Below, piece after piece: positions 1-14,168 of a stretch of DNA of 14,168 nucleotides. Source of the DNA: Pseudomonadota bacterium (GTDB taxonomy: Bacteria > Bdellovibrionota > FAC87 > UBA2466); assembly GCA_043718025.1 (NCBI GenBank), contig JAYSWN010000049.1, forward strand, positions 1 to 14,168, written 5' to 3'. The notes under the pieces were generated by a model. The model saw only the letters and a list, made by a program, of their open reading frames with translations, did no database searches and was not told the origin of the DNA. The position numbers were made by a program, and so were the translations under genes. The first letter of the stretch is position 1, and each line of letters begins with the position of its first letter.

Positions 1-44
1 GATGGGTATATCCGCTTGCCTGCCGCATTGACTTGGAACTGCAT
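1..44 (-). CDS. IS3-family transposase OrfA, N-terminal fragment (partial)
   Basis: ATG at 44 gives MQFQVNAAGKRIYP..., which runs off the window. KRIY resembles the basic R-x-Y start of IS3 OrfA HTH proteins. It lies just inside the putative IRL. Confidence 0.45.
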   Translation of the reverse strand, partial: MQFQVNAAGKRIYP

Positions 45-98
45 GATTCACTCTCTCTAGCATAAAGAAAGTGTCCGATCCAATTGGGGACAACTCCA
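1..98 (-). mobile_element. IS3-family insertion sequence, left end (rest lies outside the window)
   Basis: Minus strand from 98 reads TGGAGTTGTCCCCAATTGGATCGGACAC, a typical IS3-type terminal IR (5'-TG...CCCC...GGACAC). It is followed by TATGCT, GAGAGAG and an ATG at 44. Homology between repeat copy 1 and copy 3 stops at about 98/99. Confidence 0.7.
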
Positions 99-504
99 GT
101 CCGCGTCTGGAAACAAACCCGCTTGAATTTAGGTGGCTGACAATCTCGCTCCATTCTTTCCGTTCGCTGTCTCGAAGTCTGAGTATCAGACGTACCACCC
201 GGATTTCCTTCGAGCAGGTTACCAATCGTCCCGAAGTCACCCGCTGTCCGAAAGGAGGCTCGGGATACCGGAAATTGTCCGAAGATCTTCCACGTCCGAC
301 TGTCCGGTGGATGCCAGCCCTCCGGAGACGTGCGAGAACCATCTGCTTGGAGGCTCCGACCATTTCTGCGATCTGGGCCGCAGAAAGACCCTTTTCGACG
401 TAAAGTTGCTTCAAAACGGAGATGTCGGTGCGTTTCGGAGAGATCGGAAAATCAATGAAGTCTGTGAGATAGGAGCGGTTCGTCCAGCATCTGGCTTTGT
501 CCAA
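99..504 (-). pseudogene. HTH + Recombinase-domain protein, copy 1, 3' end cut by IS3
   Basis: Manual translation from TTG at 504: LDKARCWTNRSYLTDFIDFPISPKRTDISVLKQLYVEKGLSAAQIAEMVGASKQMVLARLRRAGIH...PPFGQ...WSEIVSHLNSSGFVSRRG, then IS3 sequence. Bases 101-503 align without gaps to 6522-6924, with about 35 mismatches in 403 nt by hand count (~91%). It is absent from the ORF track because the frame runs off the window. Confidence 0.85.
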
Positions 505-525
505 AATTTTCGCCTACCAGCGAAA
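478..525. other. att-like site 1 (hybrid: conserved left arm, foreign right arm)
   Basis: GTTCG at 478 and central CC at 501-502 (offset 23). Identical to site 3 up to CCA(503), then diverges abruptly. Confidence 0.65.
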
Positions 526-620
526 ATTAGATGTTTGATGTTAGATATTAGGTGTTTGAAAGACCTAGGACGGTGTTAGAAGGGCGAAAATTTTCCTCTA
601 ACACCAAACATCCAACATCT
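503..620. repeat. Hairpin + heptamer-repeat structured element, copy 1
   Basis: Stem AATTTTCGC(505-513)/GCGAAAATT(520-528). Heptamers TAGATGT TTGATGT TAGATAT TAGGTGT from 528. GGGCGAAAATTTTCCTCTA at 582-600. Complementary heptamers CTAACAC CAAACAT CCAACAT from 598. Confidence 0.75.
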
Positions 621-749
621 TCTTCATTCCCAACAACTTAACTATCTCTAATCTTCTCAACAACAATCCCCATGATGGTTGGAGTCGAACCCTTTCCACG
701 CTCCCCACACCCTATTCCCGTGCCTTTACAACTGCGGCATCTTGCCAGA

Positions 750-1112
750 ATGAGCTTCGAATTTGAGAACCTCGACGTCTACAAGAAATCCGTCGCCTGG
801 GCCGCCACAGTTGAAGCCTTAACCAAGACTTTGCGCAGACAGGTATCGCCGTCGCTCCTCGATCAATTAACTCGCGCCGCCCTTTCCATTCCTTTGAACA
901 TAGCCGAAGGGAACGGTCGTTGGCATAAAGCCGAAAAACGCCAGTTCCTATGGATTGCCCGTGGTTCTACGTTCGAGTGCGTTCCGATTCTTCAGGTCTT
1001 GCGCGAGAACGGTTTAATCGATGTGGAACAGCATTCAAGTTTCCGAGTTCAATTGATCGAAATTGGCCGAATGATCAATGGACTGCTGAAATCGATCGAG
1101 AAACTCAATTAG
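750..1112 (+). CDS. Four-helix-bundle protein (23S rRNA IVP / bAvd-like family)
   Basis: Family motifs FENLDVYKKS, DQLTRAALSIPLNIAEG.GR, FLWIARGS.FE and IGRMINGL. The ATG at 750 is preferred over 672 because the family N-terminus starts there. Confidence 0.9.
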   Translation: MSFEFENLDVYKKSVAWAATVEALTKTLRRQVSPSLLDQLTRAALSIPLNIAEGNGRWHKAEKRQFLWIARGSTFECVPILQVLRENGLIDVEQHSSFRVQLIEIGRMINGLLKSIEKLN

Positions 1113-1647
1113 CCCACTCGTTCTTGAGAAGGCTAAATACGACCTGGTCCACAAATCTGTCGTAGAGACGTTCGTTATCTCGAAGAACGCCTTCCTCTTT
1201 AAAACCCAGAGCCCTAGGAATTGCCTGACTCGCCTTATTGTCGGTGGCGCATCGGATCTCGATCCGATGGAGCCCCAAGTTCTTGAATGCGTAGCTTGTA
1301 ACTGCGCGAGTCGCTTTTTTCGCGAACTCGTTTCCACGAAACTCCTCGCCGATCCAGTAGCCGATCATTGCCTTTCGATTGAACCTATCTACCTCGACAA
1401 GATGGACTACGCCGGCGATCTTGTTGGCCGCTAAAAGTAGGAAGCAATACCCGTTCTCCTCGGCCATTAGTGCGAGCCGCGAATCAATATATCTTTCAGC
1501 ATCTGAAATGGTTTGCATCCCATCAAGCCACCCGAGCTGCTCTCGCAGGTACGCTCGATTGCGCTCTATGAGAGCGAAGAAGGCGGGAGCGTGGTGCTTT
1601 TGGATGGGCTGGAGCTCCAACTGATCGTCTATTTTTAGGCTGGACAT
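1105..1647 (-). CDS. RimJ/RimL-family GNAT N-acetyltransferase
   Basis: Motifs NRAYLREQLGW, IGYWIGEEFRGN, LGLHRIEIRCATDNKASQAIPRALGFKEEGVLRD. Start at ATG 1647; the upstream extension to 1785 overlaps copy 2. Confidence 0.9.
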   Translation of the reverse strand: MSSLKIDDQLELQPIQKHHAPAFFALIERNRAYLREQLGWLDGMQTISDAERYIDSRLALMAEENGYCFLLLAANKIAGVVHLVEVDRFNRKAMIGYWIGEEFRGNEFAKKATRAVTSYAFKNLGLHRIEIRCATDNKASQAIPRALGFKEEGVLRDNERLYDRFVDQVVFSLLKNEWAN

Positions 1648-1653
1648 GAGCGA

Positions 1654-1682
1654 ATAGTACTCCTGCGGCAAGACCGCTGCAA
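1654..1682 (-). promoter_or_regulatory. Putative sigma70 promoter of the GNAT gene
   Basis: TTGCAG-17 nt-TACTAT, 6 nt before the ATG at 1647. Confidence 0.45.
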
Positions 1683-1696
1683 CGAAACGAGATCGA

Positions 1697-2176
1697 TTAA
1701 ATCTTACCGGTCCAGCGCTTGTGGACCCGTTTAACTCCAACCGAGTTCCAAAGTTGATTTCTCCTGGTCGCCAACCCCTTGGCATTCAGCTGGCGAACAA
1801 TATCCGCCCATTTAGCCTCCTTCCGGTCCCGAAGCTCGACAATAAACCGAGCGATGACCATCTCTTTCCGGTTCACCACCAACCTTCGATCCGAGGTAAT
1901 TCGGTATCCAAACGGTGGTATCCGATATCGAAAATTGTACGGCGACCGACCACGGTCCTTTGTCCGGTGCACTCCTGCCCGACGTAGCCGCGCAAGAACC
2001 AGCTGCTTCGAGACACCAAATTGCTCGGCTAATTGAGAGGCCGTGCGGCCCTCTTCGAGGTAAAGTTTCTTCAAAAGCGAAGAATCCACTCGTCTCGGTG
2101 AGATCGGAAAATCAAGGAAGTCGGTGAGATAACCGCGGTTCGTGCAGCGTCCGGCTTTGTCCACCAACCTGGACAA
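1697..2176 (-). CDS. HTH + Recombinase (PF07508-like) DNA-binding protein without catalytic domain, copy 2
   Basis: HTH segment LKKLYLEEGRTASQLAEQFGVSKQLVLARLRRAG, then PPFGY and IVRQLNAKGLATRRNQLW..VGVKRV, typical of the LSR recombinase domain. No Y-x-R-x-S resolvase motif. Start is TTG 2176, TTG 2167 or GTG 2164; an in-frame TGA lies a few codons upstream. Confidence 0.8.
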   Translation of the reverse strand: MSRLVDKAGRCTNRGYLTDFLDFPISPRRVDSSLLKKLYLEEGRTASQLAEQFGVSKQLVLARLRRAGVHRTKDRGRSPYNFRYRIPPFGYRITSDRRLVVNRKEMVIARFIVELRDRKEAKWADIVRQLNAKGLATRRNQLWNSVGVKRVHKRWTGKI

Positions 2177-2185
2177 TACTCGAAC
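2138..2185. other. att-like site 2 (symmetric, attP-like)
   Basis: GTTCG(2138-2142)...CGAAC(2181-2185), centred on CC 2161-2162. Contains TTGTCCA-6 nt-TGGACAA (2157-2176) and CCACCA. Confidence 0.7.
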
Positions 2186-2283
2186 ACGTCCGGAAGTGTT
2201 TCATATCACTCTAGTTTTAGAATCCCCCCGTTCGATTCGGAAAAACAGGCCCGGGCTGGAACCGAACCGTGGTCGAACACCAT
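2182..2283. repeat. Conserved cassette left end, copy a (palindrome + 32-bp motif)
   Basis: GAACACGTCCGGAAGTGTTT (2182-2201) and CGGGCTGGAACCGAACCGTGGTCGAACACCAT (2252-2283). The latter is 29/32 identical to 7013-7044 at identical spacing from the core. Confidence 0.8.
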
Positions 2284-2386
2284 CTAAAGAAATGGCCAAC
2301 GGAGTTCTACTTGGACAGAACCTTCTCAACCGTCGCAACACTCGAAAGGAACCTCCCACTGCCAGCCAACCGCAGGGGGAGTTGAG

Positions 2387-3301
2387 TCACACCGACTTGC
2401 CGCCCACCGAGACCCGGAAGTTTTTCTCCGCCCAGGTTGCAAAATCAGTTGCAGGTTTGTCGGCGACTTGGTTTGCCAATTTGATTTGAGCATCATAGTT
2501 CGCGCCCAGATAAGTGTGGCTTTCGAAATAAGCAAACATTTGGGCAAGCTCACGTGCGCCGTTGAAGAAGGTCGAAAAGACCTCAACCGGGACTGAGTTG
2601 AAGGTAAACTTGTGACCCTGTTTATTGAGCGTACTCACAATGTCGTTAAAGCTTAGTAAACCACCCACCAAAGGGAGGTACTGTCCGTTGCCCACCTTCT
2701 CAGGATGCGCAAAAGCACCTGCAACGACATTCCCAAGCTCGGTGATATCTCCCATGTGAACGGCTTTCACCGTCGGATCGATCGGCAATGTCCAGCCTAT
2801 TGAGCCGTCCTGCTTTGATTGAGGCGCGAGCGTGATATTCAGATTTTGAAAAAAGAACGGCGCTATGACAAACGTATGGTGCCTAAAACCGCCATTCTTG
2901 ACTACGTCATCTACTTTCGCTTTCTCGGTAAAATGTGGGACATCAAACTTACCGCCGCTGATCCTTTCAACGTTGGGCAGCGTTGACCAAATGAAATGCT
3001 GAACGCCAGCCTTTTTCGCTGCTTCGACGGCCGCCATGCCTTGTGTCAGTTCATCGGTGCCTTTTTCCCAGAAATTGGTGACTGCGAAGACCCCGTAAGC
3101 ATCTTTGAACGCGGCTTTGAGTGTTTCCGGGCGGTTAAGATCTGCCTCAACGACTTCATCGCCGATACCCTGGTGCCTACTGGGGTTGCGGGTTAACGCG
3201 CGGACATGGAATTTACCACTCGCTTGAAGTGCTCGAACAACACCGCCGCCTTGGTTTCCAGTTGCGCCTAGGACCGCAATAATTTTCTTTGTAGAGGACA
3301 T
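2387..3301 (-). CDS. NmrA/HSCARG-family NAD(P)-binding protein
   Basis: Rossmann motif IAVLGATGNQGGGV, then VRALTRNP, AFKDAYGVFAVTNFW, AGVQHFIWSTLP and VPHFTEKAKV. Confidence 0.92.
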   Translation of the reverse strand: MSSTKKIIAVLGATGNQGGGVVRALQASGKFHVRALTRNPSRHQGIGDEVVEADLNRPETLKAAFKDAYGVFAVTNFWEKGTDELTQGMAAVEAAKKAGVQHFIWSTLPNVERISGGKFDVPHFTEKAKVDDVVKNGGFRHHTFVIAPFFFQNLNITLAPQSKQDGSIGWTLPIDPTVKAVHMGDITELGNVVAGAFAHPEKVGNGQYLPLVGGLLSFNDIVSTLNKQGHKFTFNSVPVEVFSTFFNGARELAQMFAYFESHTYLGANYDAQIKLANQVADKPATDFATWAEKNFRVSVGGKSV

Positions 3302-3408
3302 GATTAATATTTCCTTTGTGGTTCGTTGATTAACGTTTCAGTCGATTTTACTGAGCACGAACCAAGAACTGCCCCTTTCAAGATTTAGAGCGCTTGCGAG
3401 GTACTTGA

Positions 3409-3885
3409 TCAACGGCTCGGGCGTGCCTTGTTGAACATGTACCGAGATATTTTCCAATCGTCCCCGACTTTGACAAAAAGAAAGAACTCCCGGTTCTCTT
3501 CTGGCCCGGTAACTTTATTTGAGAGAACGGTTACCTCTCCCTTGGATGCGGTGCGAGCAAACGCGACATTTCCCGAAACAACGATCTCATCAACCGTAAA
3601 TTTAATGCGCAGCTTTATGGCACTGAAAACGTGATTGTAAGCCGCGACTAATTGTTCCCGCCCTCTCGCCGTTGGTGCCTCTGTTGGCATGAAGATACCG
3701 TCGTCCGCATAAAGGTCGACAGCATCCTTCGTGCTGGAACTATTCAACGCCGCCTCGTATCGGCTTAACTGCTTTTGAATCTTTTCTTCTTCCATACCAT
3801 TCTCCTGGTTAAGTGGGCTCCGGCCCCAACTGCAAGGGCCCGAGGTTAAAAACGCTAGAAATAAGATTGCTGAAAGCTGCTTCAT
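3409..3885 (-). CDS. SnoaL-like / NTF2-family (DUF4440, YybH-like) protein
   Basis: Motifs YEAALNSS, LYADDGIFMP, GREQL and WKISRYMFN. Hydrophobic N-terminus may be a signal peptide. SD-like GGGAGA upstream. Confidence 0.85.
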   Translation of the reverse strand: MKQLSAILFLAFLTSGPCSWGRSPLNQENGMEEEKIQKQLSRYEAALNSSSTKDAVDLYADDGIFMPTEAPTARGREQLVAAYNHVFSAIKLRIKFTVDEIVVSGNVAFARTASKGEVTVLSNKVTGPEENREFFLFVKVGDDWKISRYMFNKARPSR

Positions 3886-3893
3886 GAATCTCC

Positions 3894-5420
3894 CTATCTG
3901 ATATTCATTCTAAGGATTCCGATTTCCTTCTCGGGGATTTCCAAAAATTTGGCCATTTGTTTCCGCCATTGTTCTAGGATGGGCATCCGGTGTGCCAGGA
4001 CCAAGGTGGGTAGCCGTCGCTTTGCAATGACGGCGCAGGCCATCACTGTCTTTCCGGCTCCCGGAGGTGCCACGAGAACCCCACTTTCGTGGGGAATAAG
4101 CGCCTTTACCGCTTTGTTTTGTTCGGGAGATAGCTCTCCATGAAACGAAAGCGAAGTCTTTCGATGCCTAGGCCTTTCATCTCGAACTACGATTTGGCTC
4201 CCGGCCAACTTCAAAATCTCAAGACATCGATCGAGGGTCCCTCTTGGCAACATTAGCAAGTCACCATCCATCTCACCGCAACAGATGAATCGAGGAATAT
4301 TCCAGGTGGAAAATCTGAGGCGTTGTTTCTCGAAGAATATTGGATTGGCAAACGTCGCGGTTCGCTTTAGCGCCGCTATGAGAGGTGACGGGAGGCCCTT
4401 CAAGCTAATTTTTATCTGCGAACCCAAATGGATTTCGACTTGCTCGGGATAGCAGCCCGGCTGAATTTTTCGGGCTCCGGAATCCAACAACTTTTCAGTA
4501 CGCAAGACTTCCGCATCATCCGTAGGCACGAGTTCGAGTGAAAGCGAAGTATCCAGAACTCTATCAAGCAACCCTTGGACTTCAACTGCCGATAAGCGTG
4601 GGACAGATGCCAAGTATTTCCATTGGTCGGTGATGGGAGTTAGGCTGTCATCCAAAAACAAGGTATTTCCGTTCTCCCGAGGCTTTCTCTGGAGAGGCAA
4701 AGCGATCAGATTGCCGAATCCGCCCCTTGGAAGACAGTCCTGATTCGGAAAAAATCGATCGTAACTCTTGAGGCTGAGCCCATGTCTCTTCGAGGAAGTC
4801 CGAGCCATGATGGCGGTACCCATTTGTCTCGCCAATCTTGCGGAAACCGGTTCACAGAACAAAATCCACGCATGGCCGCCGTCGCCGGATCTTGAACGCT
4901 CAATTGCTGCCGTGATTCCCAATTCAGATGCAGCGCTCCGAAAAGCGATGATGTCCTCCCGCCAAGACGATCCATCAAAATCGGCTGCCAAAAAGGCACA
5001 GGAGCCATCTTCCCGAATGGCGTAAGTGCCTAGCGTTTCACTTCCCTCAAGATGTCTCCGGATAGCGTTGGCTTCCAATAACGGAAACGCGTGGTTCGGG
5101 CATTCACTACATTTCACTTTGGGTTTGTCGCAGATTCCTGAGCGCCATTCATTATCGCAGGCCGGAGAGTAGCCTTTCTTGCCCGTCTTATAGTTTTCCC
5201 AAAGCTTCGGAAAGACTTCCTTTCGGCAAACGAACAAGTACTCAAACAGACTAATTTTCTCTTCTGGACTGGTTGGGGTTAGTGAACGGGCTGGCTTTCC
5301 TAACGGTCCGGTCAGTTTTTCCGCTTCTGACGCAACGACATCCGCAAGCTCGACAAGAAGTCGTTTTTCTTCCTGTCGTAATTCTCTAAGTCGAGTTTCG
5401 ATTTCAACTTTGCGGTTCAT
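3894..5420 (-). pseudogene. AEP (TOTE-type) primase + SF2/ResIII helicase, C-terminally truncated
   Basis: Primase-type motifs GYSPACDNEW, CDKPKVKCSECPN, FLAADFD, ERSRSGDGGHAW, YDRFFPNQD and GGFGNLIALPLQ. Helicase Walker A APPGAGKT and motif Ia LVLAHR..LEQW are present, but the ORF stops before any DExH motif. Confidence 0.8.
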
Positions 5421-5450
5421 TTGGTCAACACAGCCTGCTTTTAGCTGGCT

Positions 5451-5936
5451 TTACGCGACCTGGACCGCATTTGCGAGCTTTGGATCGAGTAACTGGTCCA
5501 GCTCTCTAATTTCCTGAAGGCGTGTTTTTCCACCATGACCGCCGGTCACGAAATCAGTGGCTAACGCAAGAAGGGCCAAGGCCGCAAAGTGATCGATAGA
5601 AGAGTTTCGTTGAGCCGCCCTCGTAAATGTGGAGGGATCCATTCCGCCGGCTAGTACCGCGAACTCCTGCACCGAGAGCCCAATGGATTTTCTAATCCAC
5701 TGTGCTACTTTGCCAGGAAGTTTCTCGGCCTGATGCGCATAAAATTTAATCAATCCGGAGAGAAGCTTTTTGTTCTGCTCCGCTGAAACTACCATGTCCT
5801 TCAACACATCTCCGCACTTGGGACATTCGAGCACCTTTAGCCCACGGATCTTAAAGGTTGGGCCACCCTCAATTTCTACTACTTCATCAATCGTTTTGGG
5901 TGCCATGACACCCTTTTGGCAATTTTGGCATTTCAT
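5451..5936 (-). CDS. YgiT-type zinc finger + HTH protein (MqsA-like antitoxin)
   Basis: MKCQNC...LECPKCGD zinc finger followed by the HTH WIRKSIGLSVQEFAVL. ATGA overlap with the upstream gene. Confidence 0.75.
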   Translation of the reverse strand: MKCQNCQKGVMAPKTIDEVVEIEGGPTFKIRGLKVLECPKCGDVLKDMVVSAEQNKKLLSGLIKFYAHQAEKLPGKVAQWIRKSIGLSVQEFAVLAGGMDPSTFTRAAQRNSSIDHFAALALLALATDFVTGGHGGKTRLQEIRELDQLLDPKLANAVQVA

Positions 5937-6379
5937 CGATCTTTCCTCCTAGTCACCGAAACTGAAATTTTTCTCCTCACCCCGCCACCAGGCGCCTCTT
6001 CGTAGTCCGAATGAGACTTCAACCAGTCCTTCTTTATCTTCGCGTCATCCTTCCCTGGTTCATAGGCAGTTCCCACCCTTACTTGAAACGCATCCTGAAC
6101 AACCAGAGTGTCGTTGCCGTCTTCGTTCACCAGCGCACACTGTAGTTCAAGAAGTCTTCCATCCACGTCCCTGCCACGCCAGAGAAGCGTTAAGTCCCCC
6201 GGGCGAACTCTTTCGACCTTACCGTTTTCAAGAGCCTTTCTGACATCAGACTCCAAGATCTCCCGCCAAATACGGTCCTTCTCGATGTGTCTCGCGCGGA
6301 TGAAAACCCGTTCCGGCGCACTTTGCACAAGCTCGCGAATCTTAGTGGTGTATTGCCCAAGAGAAGCCTGACTCATCAT
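5933..6379 (-). CDS. DUF4258-like putative toxin with C-terminal extension
   Basis: RHIEKDRIWREILESDVRKALENGKVE...LLWRGRDVDGRLLEL...LVV matches the DUF4258 pattern. Translationally coupled to a YgiT-finger/HTH gene. Confidence 0.65.
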   Translation of the reverse strand: MMSQASLGQYTTKIRELVQSAPERVFIRARHIEKDRIWREILESDVRKALENGKVERVRPGDLTLLWRGRDVDGRLLELQCALVNEDGNDTLVVQDAFQVRVGTAYEPGKDDAKIKKDWLKSHSDYEEAPGGGVRRKISVSVTRRKDR

Positions 6380-6384
6380 TTATG

Positions 6385-6413
6385 ATAATGCCCGTAATTG
6401 GTGAATTTGTCAA
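6385..6413 (-). promoter_or_regulatory. Putative sigma70 promoter of the TA operon
   Basis: TTGACA-17 nt-CATTAT, 5 nt before the ATG at 6379. Confidence 0.55.
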
Positions 6414-6460
6414 TATATGAAGATTAATTCACTGTGGCTGCGCAATGGTAGGTCGGCTTC

Positions 6461-6970
6461 CTAGAGTTTTCCACCCCAGCGCGTATGGATCCTTTTTACT
6501 CGTATCCTGGTCAACGGGAACCCGCGCCTGGAAACAAACCCGCTTGAATTTAGGTGGCTGACAATCTCGCTCCATTCTTTCCGTTCGGTGTCTCGAAGTC
6601 TGAGTATCAGACGTACTACCCGAATTTCCGTCGAGCACGTTACCAATCGCCCCGAAACTACTTTCTGTCCGAAGGGAGGCTCGGGGTATCGGAAATTGTC
6701 CGGAGATCTTCCCCGTCCAGTTGTTCGGTGGATGCCAGCCCTGCGGATACGGGCAAGAACCATCTGCTTTGAGACGCCGACCATTTCGGCGATCTGGGCC
6801 GCAGAAAGCCCCTTTTCGACGTAAAGTTGCTTGAAAACGGAGATGTCGATGCGTTTCGGAGAGATCGGAAAATCAATGAAGTCGGTGAGATAAGAGCGGT
6901 TCGTCCAGCATCTGGCTTTGTCCACCAATCTGGACAATACTAGAACACTTCCGGAAGTGTTCCACATCAT
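6461..6970 (-). CDS. HTH + Recombinase-domain protein without catalytic domain, copy 3
   Basis: Paralogue of copies 1, 2 and 4 (YLTDF, KQLYVEKGLSAAQIA, SKQMVLAR, PPFG, IVSHLNSSG..SRRG). True start is probably TTG 6937, TTG 6928 or GTG 6925, since the upstream ATGs are not conserved in copy 2. Confidence 0.8.
   Translation of the reverse strand: MMWNTSGSVLVLSRLVDKARCWTNRSYLTDFIDFPISPKRIDISVFKQLYVEKGLSAAQIAEMVGVSKQMVLARIRRAGIHRTTGRGRSPDNFRYPEPPFGQKVVSGRLVTCSTEIRVVRLILRLRDTERKEWSEIVSHLNSSGFVSRRGFPLTRIRVKRIHTRWGGKL
6899..6946. other. att-like site 3 (symmetric, attP-like)
   Basis: GTTCG(6899)...AGAAC(6942-6946), centred on CC 6922-6923. TTGTCCA-6 nt-TGGACAA at 6918-6937; contains CCACCA. Confidence 0.7.
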
Positions 6971-7044
6971 GTAGTTTTTTGATCTGTGGTCGACACGACA
7001 TAAAAAACCTCTCGGGCTGGAACCGAACCGGAATCGAACACCAT
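6943..7044. repeat. Conserved cassette left end, copy b (palindrome + 32-bp motif)
   Basis: Perfect 20-bp palindrome GAACACTTCCGGAAGTGTTC (6943-6962) and CGGGCTGGAACCGAACCGGAATCGAACACCAT (7013-7044). Confidence 0.8.
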
Positions 7045-7202
7045 GAAGATGAGCTTAGTCGGCATGAGAGCTGCAAATTAAGTTAGTTGCGCTGCCTTCT
7101 AGGCACGAAGTTGCATGCGATGGTGGCAAAGCCCCAGATATCTTTACAAAAAGTGTCACCGCGCCTATTTTGCCCGAGATTCGAGTTTGAGCAGGAGAAC
7201 CT

Positions 7203-7790
7203 ATGAGACTGACCTCCCTAATTGCTTTCGTATTTGCGATAACATTGGCTAGCGGTGGGTTTGCAAACCACGCGCTGGAAGAAGGCGCTAGTGACCGCAC
7301 GAACGCAGGTGAAGAGGACCAAGAGAAGGCCTTCGTTAGGGCTTTGGGAGTTGTCTTTAAGGACCCGGCAACGGGCAAGCAAAAGACAGACAAGTACAAC
7401 GCTTATCTGAAGTGGCAAACGGACAGAACGGAGCTGGTTCGCCAGATCATAGATGCCGATACGGACTTAAAGAAACGCTCACTCGCTCGGAAACTTACGT
7501 CTTTGGACCAGGATTTTAGACTTTTCAATTCTGAAATCCTAAGAGCGATGGACGTTTTATCCGCAGCGGAGATTAAGCTTTATCCGGATGACGCCGCCTT
7601 CAAGAAAATTAAAGACCACGATGAAGAAACGTACGACACCTGGCAAAAAGATCGCTTAGTGGTTGTAGAGTCAATTAAGAAGGAATCAAACGATGAGAAA
7701 AAACGGTTCCTTGCCGGCAAACTCAATGCAATTGATCGAGGTTTCAAAATTCAGTTCATGGGATTTTTACTAGGCCTATCCGCCGATTAA
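7203..7790 (+). CDS. Hypothetical secreted protein with an internal duplication
   Basis: SD AGGAG upstream, signal-peptide-like N-terminus, and two Y..WQ.DR...KKR.LA.KL...D..F segments. Confidence 0.75.
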   Translation: MRLTSLIAFVFAITLASGGFANHALEEGASDRTNAGEEDQEKAFVRALGVVFKDPATGKQKTDKYNAYLKWQTDRTELVRQIIDADTDLKKRSLARKLTSLDQDFRLFNSEILRAMDVLSAAEIKLYPDDAAFKKIKDHDEETYDTWQKDRLVVVESIKKESNDEKKRFLAGKLNAIDRGFKIQFMGFLLGLSAD

Positions 7791-7811
7791 ACTGCAACAT
7801 CGGAATAGAGA

Positions 7812-8288
7812 CTAAGCTGCCGACGCCTTATCCTTCACAATCTTGTACTCAAGTTCGTATCCCAGCGCCGCTAAGAGCTTGATCATTTGATCGACCGTCT
7901 TTGTTTGATTCGCGGGATCGAGCAAGCGATAAAGCTGCGCCGGGGAAGTAGACAGCTTTCTAGCTAATTCCCGGCGGCTTAATTTCGAAGTCTTGATTCT
8001 ATCGAGGGCATCCACCGTCAGGCGATGAAGCAGTAATTTGGCCAAATATTCTGGGTCCCGGTTGTAATCAAGAAACGCATCCAGAGGGATAGAGTTTTCA
8101 TCTCCTGAATCGAGAACGTAGGTAATTCCTTCGCTGCCCATCTCCTTATCCACATAGACCTCGGCGATCTTATTTGAAGCTGTAGGAACAAGGCCCGACT
8201 TGGAGAAAGGGAGCACAAACTCGCCCTTTGGAGTCTCAATTTCAAAACATTTTCGATGGTTGTTGGCCAATACGCTTTTTATCTTCAC
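7812..8288 (-). CDS. Putative antitoxin with C-terminal XRE-type HTH
   Basis: HTH KLSRRELARKLSTSPAQLYRLLDP...TVDQMIKLLAALG. GTGA overlap with the upstream DUF4160 gene. Confidence 0.75.
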   Translation of the reverse strand: MKIKSVLANNHRKCFEIETPKGEFVLPFSKSGLVPTASNKIAEVYVDKEMGSEGITYVLDSGDENSIPLDAFLDYNRDPEYLAKLLLHRLTVDALDRIKTSKLSRRELARKLSTSPAQLYRLLDPANQTKTVDQMIKLLAALGYELEYKIVKDKASAA

Positions 8289-8479
8289 AGTTTTCCTTCC
8301 ATAACCAGTTCACTAATGATCTGCCTGAGCCTGCGGTCCATCTGCCCATCCATCACGACGCTTCGATCGAGGTTCCACTTGGCTATAAACTTACCGTCCT
8401 TATAAATATGGACATGTCTGGGCGAGTGATCTCCCTTCCATGTCACAAAGGTGTAGTTTCCTCGGCGGACCTTACTCAC
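8285..8479 (-). CDS. DUF4160-family putative toxin
   Basis: GDHSPRHVHIY motif. GTG start at 8479 inferred from the promoter position (the ORF track starts at 8515). Confidence 0.75.
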   Translation of the reverse strand: MSKVRRGNYTFVTWKGDHSPRHVHIYKDGKFIAKWNLDRSVVMDGQMDRRLRQIISELVMEGKL

Positions 8480-8485
8480 CAAATA

Positions 8486-8515
8486 ATAGTACCATACATG
8501 GTAACGCTTTATCAA
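8486..8515 (-). promoter_or_regulatory. Putative promoter with operator palindrome for the DUF4160/XRE pair
   Basis: TTGATA-18 nt-TACTAT, 6 nt before the GTG. Inverted repeat TACCAT-AC-ATGGTA (8490-8503) overlaps the -10. Confidence 0.55.
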
Positions 8516-8546
8516 GTGTTAGCTTTAGGCATGGTAGGGAGGCGCT

Positions 8547-9007
8547 TCAAACCTTGTCGGCCCACCTGTTAAAAACCTTTCTTATGCGAGAACGGTCCCA
8601 CTTTCCGCCGGTACGGCTGGGTATTTGCCTTTCATACAGGTAAGCGACGATCGCTTTCCACCCGAGGAGGTCCACTGTTCGCAGCTTTACGATGACGCGA
8701 ACAATCTTCATCTCGGAACGACTGACAACGAGCCGACCTTTGACTGCTCGAAACCCAAACGGTGGATTGCGATAGCGGTAGTTGTCTTTCCGGCGTCCGT
8801 GTCCGAGCAACGGACGAACACCTTCCTTTCTGAGTCGCGCCAGGACTGCTTGTTTGGAAAGGCCCGTTTGGTCTCCGATCTGGCTCGCTGTCAGTCCCTG
8901 TTGAGCAAATTCAGTGAAGACTCCGGAAGGAATTCGGCGAGGAGAATGGTAGTAATTAAGGAAATCAGATAGATAAAGGTGTTCGGGTATTGTCTCGTTC
9001 GGTCCAA
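8547..9007 (-). pseudogene. HTH + Recombinase-domain protein, copy 4 (divergent, 1-nt frameshift near the 5' end)
   Basis: The frame of ORF 8547-8810 extends upstream to 8975 as YLSDFLNYYHSPRRIPSGVFTEFAQQGLTASQIGDQTGLSKQAVLARLRKEG. There are only 5 nt between CGAAC and the Tyr codon, versus 6 in the other copies, so the TTG at 9007 is out of frame. Confidence 0.75.
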
Positions 9008-9028
9008 AAATTCCGCTAACGCGGAATT
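8981..9028. other. att-like site 4 (hybrid)
   Basis: GTTCG at 8981 and GTCCA with CC at 9004-9005 (offset 23 again), then the hairpin element as at site 1. Confidence 0.6.
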
Positions 9029-9168
9029 TTAGAAAATAGAAAATCGTAAATAGCTGAAAATAGATTAGAAATCTCGCCCGTCGGGCGGAATTTTTCCTCT
9101 ATTTTCTATTCTCGATTTTCCTCCGATTCCGAGTTCGGAGAGGGAAAAGAGAGGGAATTTTCCCTCTC
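9006..9168. repeat. Hairpin + heptamer-repeat structured element, copy 2
   Basis: Stem AAAATTCCGC(9007-9016)/GCGGAATTTT(9021-9030). TAGAAAA TAGAAAA TCGTAAA repeats. GGGCGGAATTTTTCCTCTA at 9083-9101. Complementary CTATTTT CTATTCT CGATTTT. Extra hairpins at 9075-9087, 9121-9140 and 9149-9168. Confidence 0.75.
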
Positions 9169-9334
9169 CATCTGCTTTTCTTCTTCGAATATCTCGCCAC
9201 TACAAAAATGATTTGAGCCTAGAAATCGCTGATTAACGCGAATCTTCGACTCAAATAGCACGAGGTGGGGAACCCCATTCCCCCCATCCCCATGGCTTCA
9301 CTAAATTACATAATTCCAATAAGTTATCACTGCG

Positions 9335-9363
9335 TTGATTTATACATCAATTTGATGTATAAT
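9335..9363 (+). promoter_or_regulatory. Sigma70 promoter with operator palindrome for the DUF4160/BrnA-like pair
   Basis: TTGATT-17 nt-TATAAT, 6 nt before GTG 9370. An inverted repeat with 11-bp arms, TTATACATCAA-T-TTGATGTATAA (9340-9362), fills the spacer. Confidence 0.7.
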
Positions 9364-9369
9364 ATACAT

Positions 9370-9612
9370 GTGAGTCCGACAGTCGCCCACTACAAGAGCG
9401 TTCGCTTCATGATTCGGACTAACGATCATCCGCCACCGCATATCCATGCGGTTAAGGACAGCTCGGAGGCGGTGGTAGAGATCCAAACGGGCAGAGTTGT
9501 TCGATCGCACGGTTTCAGCCAGCAGGACGTGGCCAGGATTGTGAAAGAGGTTTTGGCTACGAAGGAATTATTACAGGAGGAATGGGATGCCATCCACGAA
9601 GAACAAGATTGA
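9370..9612 (+). CDS. DUF4160-family putative toxin
   Basis: MSPTV...VRFMIRTNDHPPPHIHA...LLQEEWDAIH is the typical DUF4160 pattern. GTG start at 9370. Confidence 0.85.
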   Translation: MSPTVAHYKSVRFMIRTNDHPPPHIHAVKDSSEAVVEIQTGRVVRSHGFSQQDVARIVKEVLATKELLQEEWDAIHEEQD

Positions 9613-9847
9613 GCATGGCGCAAAGAACCAGCTGGATCATGACGAGTTTGATCCGAAACATGCAAAGTTTCGTGTCACGATGTTTATCGATTTGCCCATT
9701 CTCGAAACGATTCGCAATGAAGCGAAGAAAAAGGGACTTCCTTATCAAACGTATATTAATCAGTTGCTAAGAGAACATGTGGAAGGCGATCAGGATCAAA
9801 GAATCCGGGAGATAGTTCGAGATGAAGTAAAAAGGCTTCGAAAGTAA
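9587..9847 (+). CDS. BrnA/CopG-like ribbon-helix-helix antitoxin
   Basis: RVTMFIDLPILETIRNEAKKKGLPYQTYINQLLRE contains the BrnA-type YQT.IN..L motif. SD GGAGG upstream; overlaps the toxin gene. Confidence 0.8.
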   Translation: MPSTKNKIEHGAKNQLDHDEFDPKHAKFRVTMFIDLPILETIRNEAKKKGLPYQTYINQLLREHVEGDQDQRIREIVRDEVKRLRK

Positions 9848-9939
9848 ATTCGATGTCATTCGAACGTGTCGTGCCGAATTTCTCCGAGCGATATCCGGCA
9901 CAGTTACCAAGGCTTTGTTTCTAAGAATCGGTTGTGCGA

Positions 9940-10770
9940 TCAAGCGCCTCCGGCGCACTGACCCTCCTTATTTTGTCCCCAGCATTTGATTCCATTTTCA
10001 TCGAAAGCGCACGTGTGCCAATTTCCCAGGCCGACAGTTTTTGGAGATTTGAGTTTGGGGATCGTGCACTCGCCCGAATTGTTTTCGCCCCAACATTTTA
10101 ATCCCGTCTTATCTAGAGCGCAGGTGTGATAGCCTGCAGCGGCAACGAAATAAGGGGAATCCAATTCGGGAACTTTGGTTTGCCCGAATGCATTCGCGCC
10201 CCAACATTTCACTTTGCCCTCGTCCAGCACGCAGGTGTGCGCGCTGCCCGAAACAATTTCCGTCGGATGCGAGAGTTTAGGTATGGAAAGTTGGCCGACT
10301 TCGTTCCTTCCCCAACATTTCACGCCTTCAGAATCGATTGCGCAGGAGTGAAAAGCGCCCGCGGAAATTGCGATGGGCGACTTGAGTTTGGGAACGTTCG
10401 TCTGACCATAGCTGTTTAAGCCCCAGCACTTCACGCCTTTTGCGTCGAGTGCACACGTATAGCTATCTCCCAATGCTATCGCTTTGGGTTCGGTCAAAGC
10501 CGGAACCTTTGTTTGTCCGGATTTGTTGTGGCCCCAACATTTCACTCCCTCCGCGTCTATCGCACAACTGTGGAGCGCGCCGCTGGCGAGTGCGGTTGGT
10601 TTGTTTAGTTTCGGGGGCGTGATTTGCCCGGCTTGATTGCTTCCCCAACATTTTACGTGGTCGTCGATGAGTGCGCAGGTATGCCCGTAGCCGCCGGAAA
10701 TTAAGGGCGGTACGGCGGCCAACGCCGTTATGCCTAACAATGCGCAGGGCAAAATCATTCGGAAATGCAT
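9940..10770 (-). CDS. Secreted RCC1/BLIP-II repeat beta-propeller protein
   Basis: Seven ~37-aa repeats G..H(T/S)CA(L/I)D..GVKCWG.N..GQ. Signal peptide after ATG 10770; SD AGGAG upstream. Confidence 0.9.
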   Translation of the reverse strand: MHFRMILPCALLGITALAAVPPLISGGYGHTCALIDDHVKCWGSNQAGQITPPKLNKPTALASGALHSCAIDAEGVKCWGHNKSGQTKVPALTEPKAIALGDSYTCALDAKGVKCWGLNSYGQTNVPKLKSPIAISAGAFHSCAIDSEGVKCWGRNEVGQLSIPKLSHPTEIVSGSAHTCVLDEGKVKCWGANAFGQTKVPELDSPYFVAAAGYHTCALDKTGLKCWGENNSGECTIPKLKSPKTVGLGNWHTCAFDENGIKCWGQNKEGQCAGGA

Positions 10771-11048
10771 AGTTTCTCCTTGTTCCAATTAAGACGTAGT
10801 AGCGTCTCAAAATGCATCGTCCATTTTCTCTCGTCTGTGGGTTACTGGCTACAAATTTGGTTATCGCTCAAAAGCACGAAACCGCCCGGACGTAGAAGGC
10901 TTCGGACTTGCTCTTGTCCAACGGATGCACATGGTGAGCTGACATTCAAAACACAATGCAGTCGTACGGCGCCGGCGACCTGAAAGTAGCAATGTCCGCT
11001 TCCGTGACAAGAACGCGAGATTTATCGGCGGTGTGCACAGAATACTTG

Positions 11049-11593: not shown

Positions 11594-11704
11594 TCACTCG
11601 TAATTAAGATGATAACGGCGCCTGTTCTTGTAGCTCTTCCAGGTTCTCTCAAGCGTGGAATGACCCATTCAGACGCTAATGTTCTCGAGGGAGTGGCCCT
11701 TTGA
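11594..11704 (-). pseudogene. Tyrosine recombinase C-terminal remnant 1
   Basis: Manual translation SKGHSLENISV*MGHSTLERTWKSYKNRRRYHLNYE*. W-to-TGA nonsense codon at 11671-11669. Contains the MGHS...Y box II. Confidence 0.75.
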
Positions 11705-11706
11705 AT

Positions 11707-11844
11707 GGAATTGACCTTTACGCCGGAAGAAAGGGATTTACGGATCTGATGCTCGCCAAAGGACACGCTTTGGAGAACATCAGCGTATGGATGGGGCACT
11801 CCACCCTTGAGCGGACCTGGAAGAGTTATAAAAGCCGGCGCAAA
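11707..11844 (+). pseudogene. Tyrosine recombinase C-terminal remnant 2, cut by IS66
   Basis: GIDLYAGRKGFTDLMLAKGHALENISVWMGHSTLERTWKSYKSRRK aligns with the box II pattern HxLRHxFAT...LGHS...TxxY. Confidence 0.8.
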
Positions 11845-11920
11845 GTGAACGCTCCATCAACCCCACCTTTTAGCCCTTAGGAAATCCCGTACACTGAGCC
11901 TCTCAATCACGGAGGTTAAT

Positions 11921-12211
11921 GTGGATTCGACTATTCAATCGGAAAAAGTAGTGTCGTGGCCAGCTGAGGTGGCGCTGTTTGCGAAGCACACCGGATCTCT
12001 TGCTGGATTTTGCCGTTCGCGCGGACTGTCAGAAGTTCGGTTTCGTTATTGGGAGCAGAAGCTACGCAAATCCAGTGTGAGCAAGGTCGTTTCGGTGTCG
12101 CCGTTTGTTTCGGTGAAGGTGGAACCAAAAGCAACGGTTTCAACGGTGGGGCTTCCAGATCCGCGCTGGCTAGCGGAGTTAATTTTGCATCTGAACGGGT
12201 CTGGACAGTGA
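11921..12211 (+). CDS. tnpA: IS66 accessory protein TnpA
   Basis: SLAGFCRSRGLSEVRFRYWEQKL...FVSV pattern; SD GGAGG; first ORF inside the IRL. Confidence 0.85.
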   Translation: MDSTIQSEKVVSWPAEVALFAKHTGSLAGFCRSRGLSEVRFRYWEQKLRKSSVSKVVSVSPFVSVKVEPKATVSTVGLPDPRWLAELILHLNGSGQ

Positions 12212-12564
12212 AGTCGGTTAGAGAGTTTCTCGGCGTCTTTTTTCACCGCGAGCCAGTGGACATGCGTAAGGCGATAAATGGGCTCTCACAGTTGGTGGAG
12301 TCGGCCGGAATGGGCGAGATGATGGGGCCGAATCTTTTCGTGTTCTCGAATCGCCGCCGGGAGCTGATAAAGGTTTTGTATTTTGACCGGTCCGGATTCG
12401 CGCTGTGGATGAAGCGGCTGGAGAAGGACAAATTCCCCTGGCCAAAGAAGCACGAATCAACGGTGGTGAGCTTAAGCCCCGAGCAATTTGAATGGCTTCT
12501 CGATGGCTACGATGTTTGGAAGATGAAACCGTTCGAAAAATTGAATTACGCTCGGCTAAGTTAG
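12208..12564 (+). CDS. tnpB: IS66 accessory protein TnpB
   Basis: PVDMRKAINGL, LFVFSNRRRELIKVLYFDRSGF.LWMKRLEK..FPWP. GTG start overlaps the tnpA stop (GTGA). Confidence 0.93.
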   Translation: MKSVREFLGVFFHREPVDMRKAINGLSQLVESAGMGEMMGPNLFVFSNRRRELIKVLYFDRSGFALWMKRLEKDKFPWPKKHESTVVSLSPEQFEWLLDGYDVWKMKPFEKLNYARLS

Positions 12565-12601
12565 TGACTCCGATCTGTTTTTTGTTAGAGTGCGGCCATC
12601 G

Positions 12602-14140
12602 ATGGAACGAGCCGCAAATTTATTTTCCGACGCTGAATCGCTTCACATCGAAATCCAGAGTCTCAAATCGGTAGTTGCGCAGAGCGAACAGCGCCTCGCT
12701 TTGTACGAAGAAGAGAATTTCAATCTCTATGAGATCATTCGCAAGCTAAAGAAAGAGGCCTTTGGCCCTCGCAGGGAACGTTGGGAGAGCAATGAGCAAG
12801 TGCTTCTTTTTAACGAAGCGGAAAGTTGTGCCGCTAACGAAACGGCAGCGCCCGAGCCCGAGGTAGTAGTTCCCGCGCACACCCGCAAGCGCGGAAAAAG
12901 AGAACCCTTGCCGCAGAATCTCCCGCGCGAGGTTGTGGTTATTGATTTGCCCGAAGCCGAAAAAGTAGCGCCAGACGGAAGTCCCCTGCGAATGATGGGC
13001 GAAGAGGTTTCCGAAAAGCTCGTGTTTGAGCCCGCAGTGATGAAGATCATTGAGTATCACCGGCTAAAGTACGGCGGAGCCGAAGGGGCAGACACGGTAA
13101 AAATAGCCGCCGTTCCCCCATGCATCATCCCCAAGGGAATCGCTACTTCCTCTTTGCTTTCACAAATCGTCACAAGCAAGTTCGCTGACGGGCTGCCTCT
13201 GTACCGGCAAGAAGAGCAATTTGAAAGGCTTGGCGTCGATATCCATCGCTCCACAATGGGTCGGTGGATTATCCAAGCCGCCCAAACCTGCCAGGGTATC
13301 TGGAACGCTCTGGAAGAGCGGCTTATGAGTGAGCGTTACGTCACTTGCGATGAGACGCCCGTGCAGGTGCTCAAGGAAAAAGATCGAAAGGCAGAAAGCA
13401 AATCTTGGATGTGGGTCCGGGCTACGCCCGCGGCAGATAAGAAAATCGTTCTTTTTGACTACGATCCCTCTCGCTCTGGCGATGTGGCCAAAAAACTTTT
13501 CGCCGAGTACCAGGGCTTTTTCCAGGCCGATGGCTACGGCGCCTACAACGTGCTTGAACAAAACGCCGGAATCATTCGCATCGGCTGCAATATGCACGGG
13601 CGCCGCAAGTTTTTCGACGCAGCCGAGGGCTCGGCAAAAGGGCAGTCTCTCGCGAAAGAGGGGCTCGACTACTACCAAAATCTTTACGCGATCGAAAAAA
13701 GAGCCAAAGGGCTTTCCTTTTCTGATCGACACGCGCTTCGCCAAAACGAAGCAACCCCTTTGTGGGATGTAATGCACGAGTGGGCTCTGAAGCACAACGA
13801 GTCAGTGCCGCCGAAAAGTAAAATCGGAAAAGCCTTTCACTACTTCCTGGCCGAGTACGAATGCCTTCGAGGATATCTCAAGGATGGCTGCCTCGAAATG
13901 GACAACGGTTTCACCGAACGAGCCATAAAGTACTTCGCCATCGGCAGGAAGAACTGGATGTTCTCCGACACTGTCGCCGGAGCCAACTCCAGCAGCATCT
14001 TCTACAGCTTTGTCGTCACCGCAAAACTCAACGGTGTCGATCCCTACCAAGCGATGAAGAAAATCTTCGACGAGGTCCCGCTCTCAACCACCGCCGATGA
14101 CTACGATCGACTTGCCGATATTCTGCTCGGCATTCGATAG
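12602..14140 (+). CDS. tnpC: IS66 DDE transposase TnpC
   Basis: Motifs KFADGLPLYRQ, CDETPVQVL, FQADGY..Y, CNMHGRRKF, MDNGFTERAIK..AIGRKNWMF and TAKLNGVDP. Confidence 0.95.
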   Translation: MERAANLFSDAESLHIEIQSLKSVVAQSEQRLALYEEENFNLYEIIRKLKKEAFGPRRERWESNEQVLLFNEAESCAANETAAPEPEVVVPAHTRKRGKREPLPQNLPREVVVIDLPEAEKVAPDGSPLRMMGEEVSEKLVFEPAVMKIIEYHRLKYGGAEGADTVKIAAVPPCIIPKGIATSSLLSQIVTSKFADGLPLYRQEEQFERLGVDIHRSTMGRWIIQAAQTCQGIWNALEERLMSERYVTCDETPVQVLKEKDRKAESKSWMWVRATPAADKKIVLFDYDPSRSGDVAKKLFAEYQGFFQADGYGAYNVLEQNAGIIRIGCNMHGRRKFFDAAEGSAKGQSLAKEGLDYYQNLYAIEKRAKGLSFSDRHALRQNEATPLWDVMHEWALKHNESVPPKSKIGKAFHYFLAEYECLRGYLKDGCLEMDNGFTERAIKYFAIGRKNWMFSDTVAGANSSSIFYSFVVTAKLNGVDPYQAMKKIFDEVPLSTTADDYDRLADILLGIR

Positions 14141-14168
14141 CCTACCCTGTGGTTTGTGGAGCGTTCAC

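Follow-up and report, generated by a model that had tools for sequence, protein, structure and literature searches.

The 14,168-bp window analyzed here is a whole contig (C178; JAYSWN010000049.1) of a 4.14-Mb, 92% complete metagenome-assembled genome (MAG) of the Bdellovibrionota (GCA_043718025.1). It contains four co-oriented frames of ~150 amino acids (aa) that pair a helix-turn-helix (HTH) region with a recombinase domain. From comparison with relatives we hold, with high confidence, that these frames are detached C-terminal modules, here called tails, of a large serine recombinase (LSR) whose gene contains attP. The window as a whole is probably a tandem array of nonautonomous, LSR-less mini-islands, each ending in such a tail and likely located at the 3' end of ssrA, the gene for transfer-messenger RNA (tmRNA). 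LSR and tail join in one frame on circles built in silico from related islands and also occur as natural fused frames, which points to an origin of the tails within the LSR gene. In addition, LSR-derived left ends follow tmRNA 3' ends in relatives, which argues for an accretion array of LSR-less units, most likely at ssrA. An initial annotation had described the four frames as separate HTH-recombinase genes, carried by units that an LSR moves. The LSR family as mobilizer and the absence of an LSR from the units both stand, and the separate genes are replaced by parts of one gene, given the in-frame joins described below.

Split integrase genes in related islands

Of 401 genomes sampled from the phylum, 199 match a profile built from 30 tail frames. 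We examined 111 loci with 127 tail matches, chosen from the better profile matches rather than at random (genomes, contigs, and loci are denoted G, C, and L). Most of these tail frames start 40 to 70 nucleotides (nt) from a sequence with a tRNA- or tmRNA-like end. Anchors within reach share a core of 6 to 60 nt between their 3' end and the tail site. Two or three tails are present in 11 of the 110 other loci. Five loci with close homologues belong to Bdellovibrionota-group MAGs.

Related islands in the Bdellovibrionota have an LSR gene that runs into the 3' end of the tRNA or tmRNA gene and a tail frame at the far island end. The first clear case, L052, comprises tRNA-Val, an LSR reading into this tRNA, cargo, and an HTH frame 6.2 kb away, and its in silico circle carries a single 662-aa frame. 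Among elements with an LSR at a tRNA, 13 of 13 circles give an in-frame, stop-free fusion of LSR and tail (two of the LSR frames are partial). A 61,176-bp tmRNA element present in two genomes yields one 770-aa frame on its circle, and nearest-tail pairs found after extending eleven loci join in frame in nine of nine cases (two extended loci, G167:C3 and G287:C7, have no LSR beside the anchor). Three of the four LSRs that abut another island also join a tail in frame, the fourth having no detectable shared core. This brings the total to 26 of 26 testable elements, located at tRNA-Val, -Asn, -Pro, -Asp, -His, -Leu, and -Ala genes and at tmRNA; the chance of an in-frame join is 1/3 per element, and the 26 elements are related and not fully independent. 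Noncognate pairs of LSR and tail can be out of frame (G218, L063) and act as a control. The 61,176-bp island (L036 and L037, in G026 and G028) is identical in its two genomes and is followed by different sequence to the right of the CC, a second marker of the crossover.

Fusions are also found in nature. Frames of 753, 793, and at least 529 aa contain LSR domains plus tail, and those of G218 and G263 are tandem junctions at which the LSR of one island reads into its neighbor's tail. Two database proteins of 671 and 691 aa show the same layout; they are the two inspected among the 150 listed matches of a profile search of all representatives, which returned mostly multi-HTH repeat proteins. A word-based protein search with tail 2 gave one match only, an 89% fragment, and a search for longer proteins with the tail gave three matches, with no such fusion among them. 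After the split, the Resolvase, Recombinase, and Zn-ribbon domains all remain in the N-terminal LSR part. In the integrated tmRNA elements L100 and L103 (G026, G028), we observe that the LSR frame continues antisense through the tmRNA and is thereby extended by well over 100 codons (to 738 and 853 to 857 aa).

As reconstructed from these sequences, integration at the CC in autonomous relatives leaves the LSR body on the left, with a tRNA-derived end peptide, and the ~150-aa tail on the right. Circularization in silico, or a tandem P-P' junction between islands, rejoins LSR body and tail in one frame. The complete enzyme would be encoded only on the excised circle or across two neighboring islands.

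Organization of the array and its probable ssrA target

Tails 2 (1697..2162), 3 (6461..6923), and 4 (8547..9005) are intact frames on the minus strand, and tail 1 (99..502, same strand) has lost its 3' end to a multicopy insertion sequence (IS). The end of this element, which we take to be IS3-like, occupies 1..98 and cuts the tail at ~98; its 1,276-bp contig has a depth of 83 versus ~10, and contigs C45 and C74 end in a related motif. Over 403 nt, copies 1 and 3 share 91.3% identity, in agreement with the earlier estimate of ~91%, and at the amino acid level copy 2 is 59% identical to copy 1, 55% to copy 3, and 44% to copy 4. Copy 4 is nearer to tails of other samples (nonsynonymous divergence [dN], 0.17 to 0.22) than to copies 1 to 3, which upholds the independent acquisition suggested in the initial annotation. 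The frames are paralogous, as proposed there, with these corrections: copy 1 is broken by the IS, no start codon is common to all four, and copy 4 has a different frame relative to the GTTCG-N18-CC site from copies 1 to 3. All four copies have an HTH-like first half with Pfam HTH matches, above the curated cutoff in copies 1 and 3 only, and Recombinase (PF07508) exceeds its Pfam cutoff in copy 4 only. The predicted fold of copy 2 (mean predicted local distance difference test score, 85) overlays the Bxb1 recombinase domain with a root mean square deviation of 1.5 Å over 84 columns, at a weak E value of 0.026. A fifth, truncated tail is present in the same genome (contig C24, 6806-7156), behind a tRNA-like CCCGCCA end and beside toxin-antitoxin (TA)-like genes.

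Each tail starts on a GTTCG-N18-CC site, with CC cores at 501-502, 2161-2162, 6922-6923, and 9004-9005 and with the spacings first annotated (1660, 4761, and 2082 bp). The motif GTTCG-N15-KGTCCA is present 4 times in the window, where 0.03 occurrences are expected, and none of 200 shuffled sequences has as many; it was drawn from the four copies themselves, and the statistic measures repetition only. On the plus strand, J1 (478..502) consists of a P arm (GTTCG-N18) and the CC crossover, an attR-like junction of the type also seen in G024. J2 (2138..2185) and J3 (6899..6946) are tandem P-P' junctions in which P arm, CC, and P' arm follow one another; J2 reads GTTCG-N18-CC-N18-CGAAC, with CGAAC mirrored 18 nt to the right of the CC. 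J4 (8981..9005) is again attR-like, with a P arm and CC, and when inverted it agrees with the unit B P' arm at 19/25 positions. These junctions are hybrids of a target 3' end and element arms, as in tandem LSR islands targeted to tRNA or tmRNA genes.

The left ends of units A (2163..2283) and B (6924..7044), both on the plus strand, belong to one family and are 76% identical over 126 nt, which matches the conserved left end of ~120 bp noted earlier. They correspond to the last ~15 codons of an ssrA-targeting LSR, with the residues CSSIVQIGG at J3 matching the end of the G021 LSR; in left end A, this P' arm is followed by a palindrome and a distal conserved motif. Neither left end folds better than shuffled sequence (z of -0.5 and -1.6). 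The distal motif (GGAACCGAACC ... TCGAACACC; 2255-2283 and 7016-7044) lies ~95 to 120 nt inside the left end in seven LSR-less left ends and is not found in the LSR end of G021. Its minus strand contains the arm motif GTGTTCGA once more, and it may be an accessory binding site.

Unit B (6924-9005) reads as a clean mini-island: its inverted arms match at 19/25 positions, and on the predicted circle its LSR remnant and tail 4 share one frame. Relatives with the unit-B left end and a tail-4-type tail carry different cargo in units of ~1.9 and 2.8 kb.

To the right of J1 and J4 stand B'-type flanks on the plus strand, each a terminator-like hairpin with a palindrome. The first (503..660, with a long palindrome; DNA fold z of -6.9) is found immediately behind tmRNA-like 3' ends at L040, L060, and L106, and the second (9006..9130; z of -5.3) is 79 to 81% identical to flanks after tRNA-His (C111) and tRNA-Tyr (C179). 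We rejected both as P' arms or attC sites because their symmetry with the P arms is poor (7 to 9 of 25) and they follow empty tmRNA-like ends. Terminator and long-palindrome modules also directly follow several tRNA and tmRNA 3' ends on contigs C111, C179, C142, and C102 of this genome, sometimes with an IVP gene next; on C179 the module is found behind tRNA-Tyr and again behind a duplicated tRNA-Tyr 3' half ~4 kb off.

The closest relatives, G024, G026, and G028, have a tmRNA at the array head. The tmRNA end reads GTTCG-N13-CC where the window arms read GTTCG-N18-CC, and this 5-bp shift matches the published LSR rule, as given in the part of the source consulted, that the binding motif lies 5 bp further out in attP than in attB (PMC3783163). 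G021, a family member, has a cognate LSR type next to its tmRNA; left ends A and B are each identical to the attL arm of this LSR at 26/30 nt, and left ends of this type directly follow tmRNA-like 3' ends in four loci (L197, L198, L062, and L063). In G024, a unit of 1,417 bp that lacks an LSR and has an end of the tail-1 type lies exactly at the CC, between a tmRNA-like end and the hairpin flank, and its site is empty in three other loci. This supports the earlier claim of att-bounded units with a crossover at the CC; the precise gain or loss that the annotation had proposed to look for is seen in this one filled versus empty case, across genera and not between strains. The clearest analogue is G155. 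Behind its tmRNA stand one 40-kb LSR island and then, in tandem, two units without an LSR (8.9 and 4.5 kb), both ending in tails that are in frame with the LSR of the island. Contig C8 of G008 carries two tails and five or more tmRNA 3' fragments; ssrA is a hotspot for stacked islands in this family. The most likely target of the window's array is the ssrA 3' end. The candidate target tRNA-Ala(GGC) was dropped, the closest relatives being anchored at tmRNA, and ARAGORN and Rfam found nothing credible within the window.

Maintenance of the tails and competing explanations

Units reaching from a tRNA to a tail without an LSR keep the tail frame open from the crossover in 21 of 22 cases, a set that drops 7 of 29 LSR-less rows (second-tRNA rows, units above 12 kb, and one distal duplicate). 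Among pairs with dN below 0.36, the ratio of nonsynonymous to synonymous divergence (dN/dS) is 0.17 between tail 1 and tail 3, which show 22.5 synonymous and 12.5 nonsynonymous differences, and 0.15 to 0.21 for tail 4 and four relatives at dS values of 1.0 to 1.4. Two of these four relatives are units with the LSR-less left end of unit B. Provided that left ends and tails share their inheritance, this suggests that selection on the tails continued once the LSR body was gone. Seven copies of this ~120-bp left end were aligned; besides those of the window, they come from two metagenome contigs and two further genomes. All seven full copies have a start-type codon (ATG, GTG, or TTG) 15 codons before the CC. 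This codon shares the frame of tail 4 on the predicted unit B circle and is out of frame for unit A, and tails 2 and 3 have starts inside the neighboring left ends of the array.

We propose that the ancestors of these units lost the LSR body and kept both arms and the tail, and that a helper LSR acting in trans would add each unit at the restored attachment site, pushing older units outward. The long form of the enzyme, made from the circle or a hybrid junction, and the short form, made from the integrated copy, may favor different reactions. The long form would most likely serve integration, its extra HTH and recombinase domains binding sites near attP. The short form would favor excision or be less active, standing in for a separate directionality factor. 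Orphan tails could be kept since they complete an incoming neighbor's LSR or act in trans. A directional role of the tail is a tentative proposal that we regard as somewhat more doubtful than probable. More speculative still is the wider idea that this LSR family controls direction by cutting its own gene, with its ssrA and tRNA arrays serving as a bank of interchangeable DNA-binding tails for hybrid long integrases.

Several observations weigh against the proposed array of mini-islands at ssrA. No LSR and no tmRNA gene were found in this assembly (92% complete), and the contig ends in an IS; helper and anchor are therefore taken from relatives. The only tmRNA traces found are two degenerate 3' fragments on contig C60, which is not demonstrably connected with the window contig. 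The left end of unit A (2163-6923) is of the B type and its right end of the tail-1/3 type. Although it was first annotated as a clean cassette, it is probably a deletion chimera, since its arms match at only 13/25 positions compared with 19/25 for unit B, LSR remnant and tail are out of frame, and its primase-helicase is cut inside the helicase domain; units A and B combined have matched arms (20/25) and a matched frame. The stretch 503-2162 has the B'-type flank and no recognizable cognate P' arm (9/25), and its layout recurs in G010 and L060. Hybrid junctions are out of frame at L063 and G218. In-frame starts in P' arms are not enriched (13, 10, and 11 of 22 in the three frames), and for lack of such enrichment across the 22 units we rejected start-codon supply by the P' arm as a family rule; in the L062 mini-island, the start-like codon is out of frame with the unit's own tail. 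In G024, the tail frame meets a stop right behind the site, and purifying selection on the tails may be partly older than the loss of the LSR body.

On C60, the second tmRNA fragment is followed by a decayed copy of the left end that goes with the tail-1-type unit of G024, and this contig may be an upstream part of the window's array.

Much of this would also fit dead relics, that is, deletion remnants of full LSR islands piled up at ssrA with silent tails and immobile units. This account is compatible with the split gene and differs from ours on activity only. The IS-broken tail 1, the chimeric appearance of unit A, the assembly without an LSR, the early stop in G024, and the lack of start enrichment all favor it, yet the LSR-less left end of ~120 bp recurs in seven copies with tail-4-type tails and varied cargo, tail-4-family tails retain a dN/dS of ~0.15 to 0.2 at a dS of ~1, and filled and empty sites of the 1,417-bp LSR-less unit differ exactly at the CC; we consider the relic account improbable on balance. 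We judge equally unlikely that the tails are small stand-alone proteins, such as a directionality factor or repressor, with a start supplied by the circle or a neighboring left end. The start-type codon of the seven left ends, in frame with tail 4 on circle B, the starts available to tails 2 and 3, and the purifying selection on orphan tails agree with this, whereas neither unit A nor the L062 mini-island has this codon in frame, and starts are not enriched across the family.

The initial annotation had called the array integron-like, with a complete noncatalytic HTH-recombinase gene in each unit. Integrons add co-oriented cargo units, including TA-like pairs, at one site, and the co-oriented units, varied cargo, TA-like pairs, and precise CC boundaries of the window invite the comparison. 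Nevertheless, the fusion of the tail to the LSR body in all 26 testable autonomous relatives largely refutes this reading, which we regard as very unlikely. No IntI above the cutoff was found in the 92% complete genome (TIGR02249, best score 77 bits versus a cutoff of 265), the left ends of A and B show no attC-type fold above chance, and the sites are double-stranded, serine-type P arms that mimic the tmRNA 3' end. What remains is a loose analogy, and the array is an accretion array rather than an integron.

An assembly artifact or a local duplication is the least credible account. It would draw on the origin of the contig from a MAG, on short identical stretches in tails 1 and 3, and on the lack of a single assembled piece spanning the whole array among the run contigs. 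Contigs of two runs (possibly the source samples) nevertheless bridge J1, J2, and J3 at an even depth of ~9 to 11x, J4 is bridged in contigs of one of the two runs, and copies 1 and 3 fall in separate contigs, with no joints listed. An artifact, which the initial annotation had named as a possible refutation, is unlikely because depth is even, the junctions are bridged, and the two copies are kept apart. The other copies are only 44 to 59% identical to copy 2, and further arrays with two or three tails (11 of 110 loci) also speak against artifact or duplication. No circle joints were seen in the run contigs, which drop rare variants.

Cargo, related systems, and implications

The cargo between the tails is varied. 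A four-helix-bundle (23S_rRNA_IVP) gene at 750..1112 on the plus strand (PF05635, E value of 1.7e-27) overlaps a GNAT (Acetyltransf_3) gene at 1105..1785 on the minus strand, whose true start is probably downstream of 1785. Unit A carries, all on the minus strand, an NmrA-like gene (2387..3301), a SnoaL/DUF4440 gene (3409..3885), an AEP-TOTE primase with a truncated helicase (3894..5420), and a TA-like pair of DUF4258 and MqsA-like proteins (5451..6379), both below Pfam cutoffs, with a similar pair in the G024 ssrA array. The AEP-TOTE match is full and ResIII covers model positions 3 to 83 of 164 only, and a deletion or chimera joint near 3900 is likely. Unit B carries a protein without a Pfam family (7203..7790, plus strand) and a TA-like pair of DUF4160 and HTH_37 proteins (7812..8515, minus strand). 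As first noted, TA-like pairs precede copies 3 and 4.

To the right of J4, 9265-10788 encodes a third TA-like pair (DUF4160 and CopG/BrnA) and a seven-repeat RCC1-like protein and may be a further island remnant. An inverted repeat at 11618-11841 (84-nt arms, 77% complementary, 56 nt apart) lies just left of an IS66 element (TnpB/TnpC; 11845-14168) with about twice the chromosomal depth.

Phage genes that contain attP and exchange their C terminus on integration are known from myxophage Mx8 (IntP/IntX) and mycobacteriophage BPs (the repressor). The Mx8 enzyme is a tyrosine integrase and the BPs gene a repressor, and neither is known to have orphan-tail mini-islands. Our full-text literature search, which left out most of the subscription literature, found no description of an HTH plus second recombinase-domain tail.

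The nearest counterpart is provided by the ssrA islands of Dehalococcoides with the integrase DsiB (McMurdie 2011, PMC3146451). In the portion of that report consulted, islands are stacked in tandem downstream of ssrA, dsiB lies next to attL, reads on the reverse strand, and meets no stop codon within the island, and 15 islands without an integration module are proposed to be cis-mobilizable by accretion (PMC3146451). The authors further suggest that dsiB may be complete only on the circle or beside an adjacent island with a 3' fragment (PMC3146451). Tandem ssrA islands, integrase-less islands, and a circle-completed serine integrase overlapping attL are to that extent already described or proposed. 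What the present case adds is a defined split-off tail of a serine integrase and an array of orphan-tail mini-islands. The same portion of text identifies no 3' fragment, whereas we observe a ~150-aa HTH plus recombinase-domain module with 26 in-frame fusions and natural ones. Boundaries there are 20-bp direct repeats, compared with a 2-bp CC core with P and B arms here, and the present host belongs to another phylum and its window, unlike the Dehalococcoides islands, has no DsiA-type module.

The suicidal tyrosine integrases of archaeal SSV1, pTN3, and pT26-2 likewise carry attP in the gene and are split on integration, with excision in trans by related integrases and chimeras formed by half exchange (Badel 2021, PMC8371274); the passages concerned describe self-disrupting integrases as exclusively archaeal. 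Both halves of these enzymes are inactive pseudogenes in that account, and an enzyme of their kind would be a tyrosine recombinase with the catalytic domain in the detached half. Here, in contrast, the N-terminal part keeps all canonical LSR domains and only an extra DNA-binding module is detached. With the integrases of A118/LI, Bxb1, and phiC31, the family shares the 2-bp crossover, inverted arms, and 5-bp P-arm shift, and the second half of the tail is predicted to fold like the Bxb1 recombinase domain. Those enzymes use a separate directionality factor, and the portion of the source consulted describes no second recombinase domain beyond attP (PMC3783163).

The window's own contribution is the nonautonomous side, with several orphan tails kept in one array, and the missing 3' fragment that the consulted text of 2011 only hypothesized (PMC3146451) is here a defined domain. 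Orphan-tail arrays account for many start-less "recombinase family" open reading frames at island ends. In the mining of LSRs as tools, annotation of integrated copies yields the short form, whose end derives from the tRNA, and the long form can be lost to length filters. Comparing the long and short forms of one enzyme would directly test directionality control without a separate factor. If the idea of a tail bank is true, growth of the array would be coupled to diversification of the integrase, each new neighbor or multiunit circle gaining a new tail.

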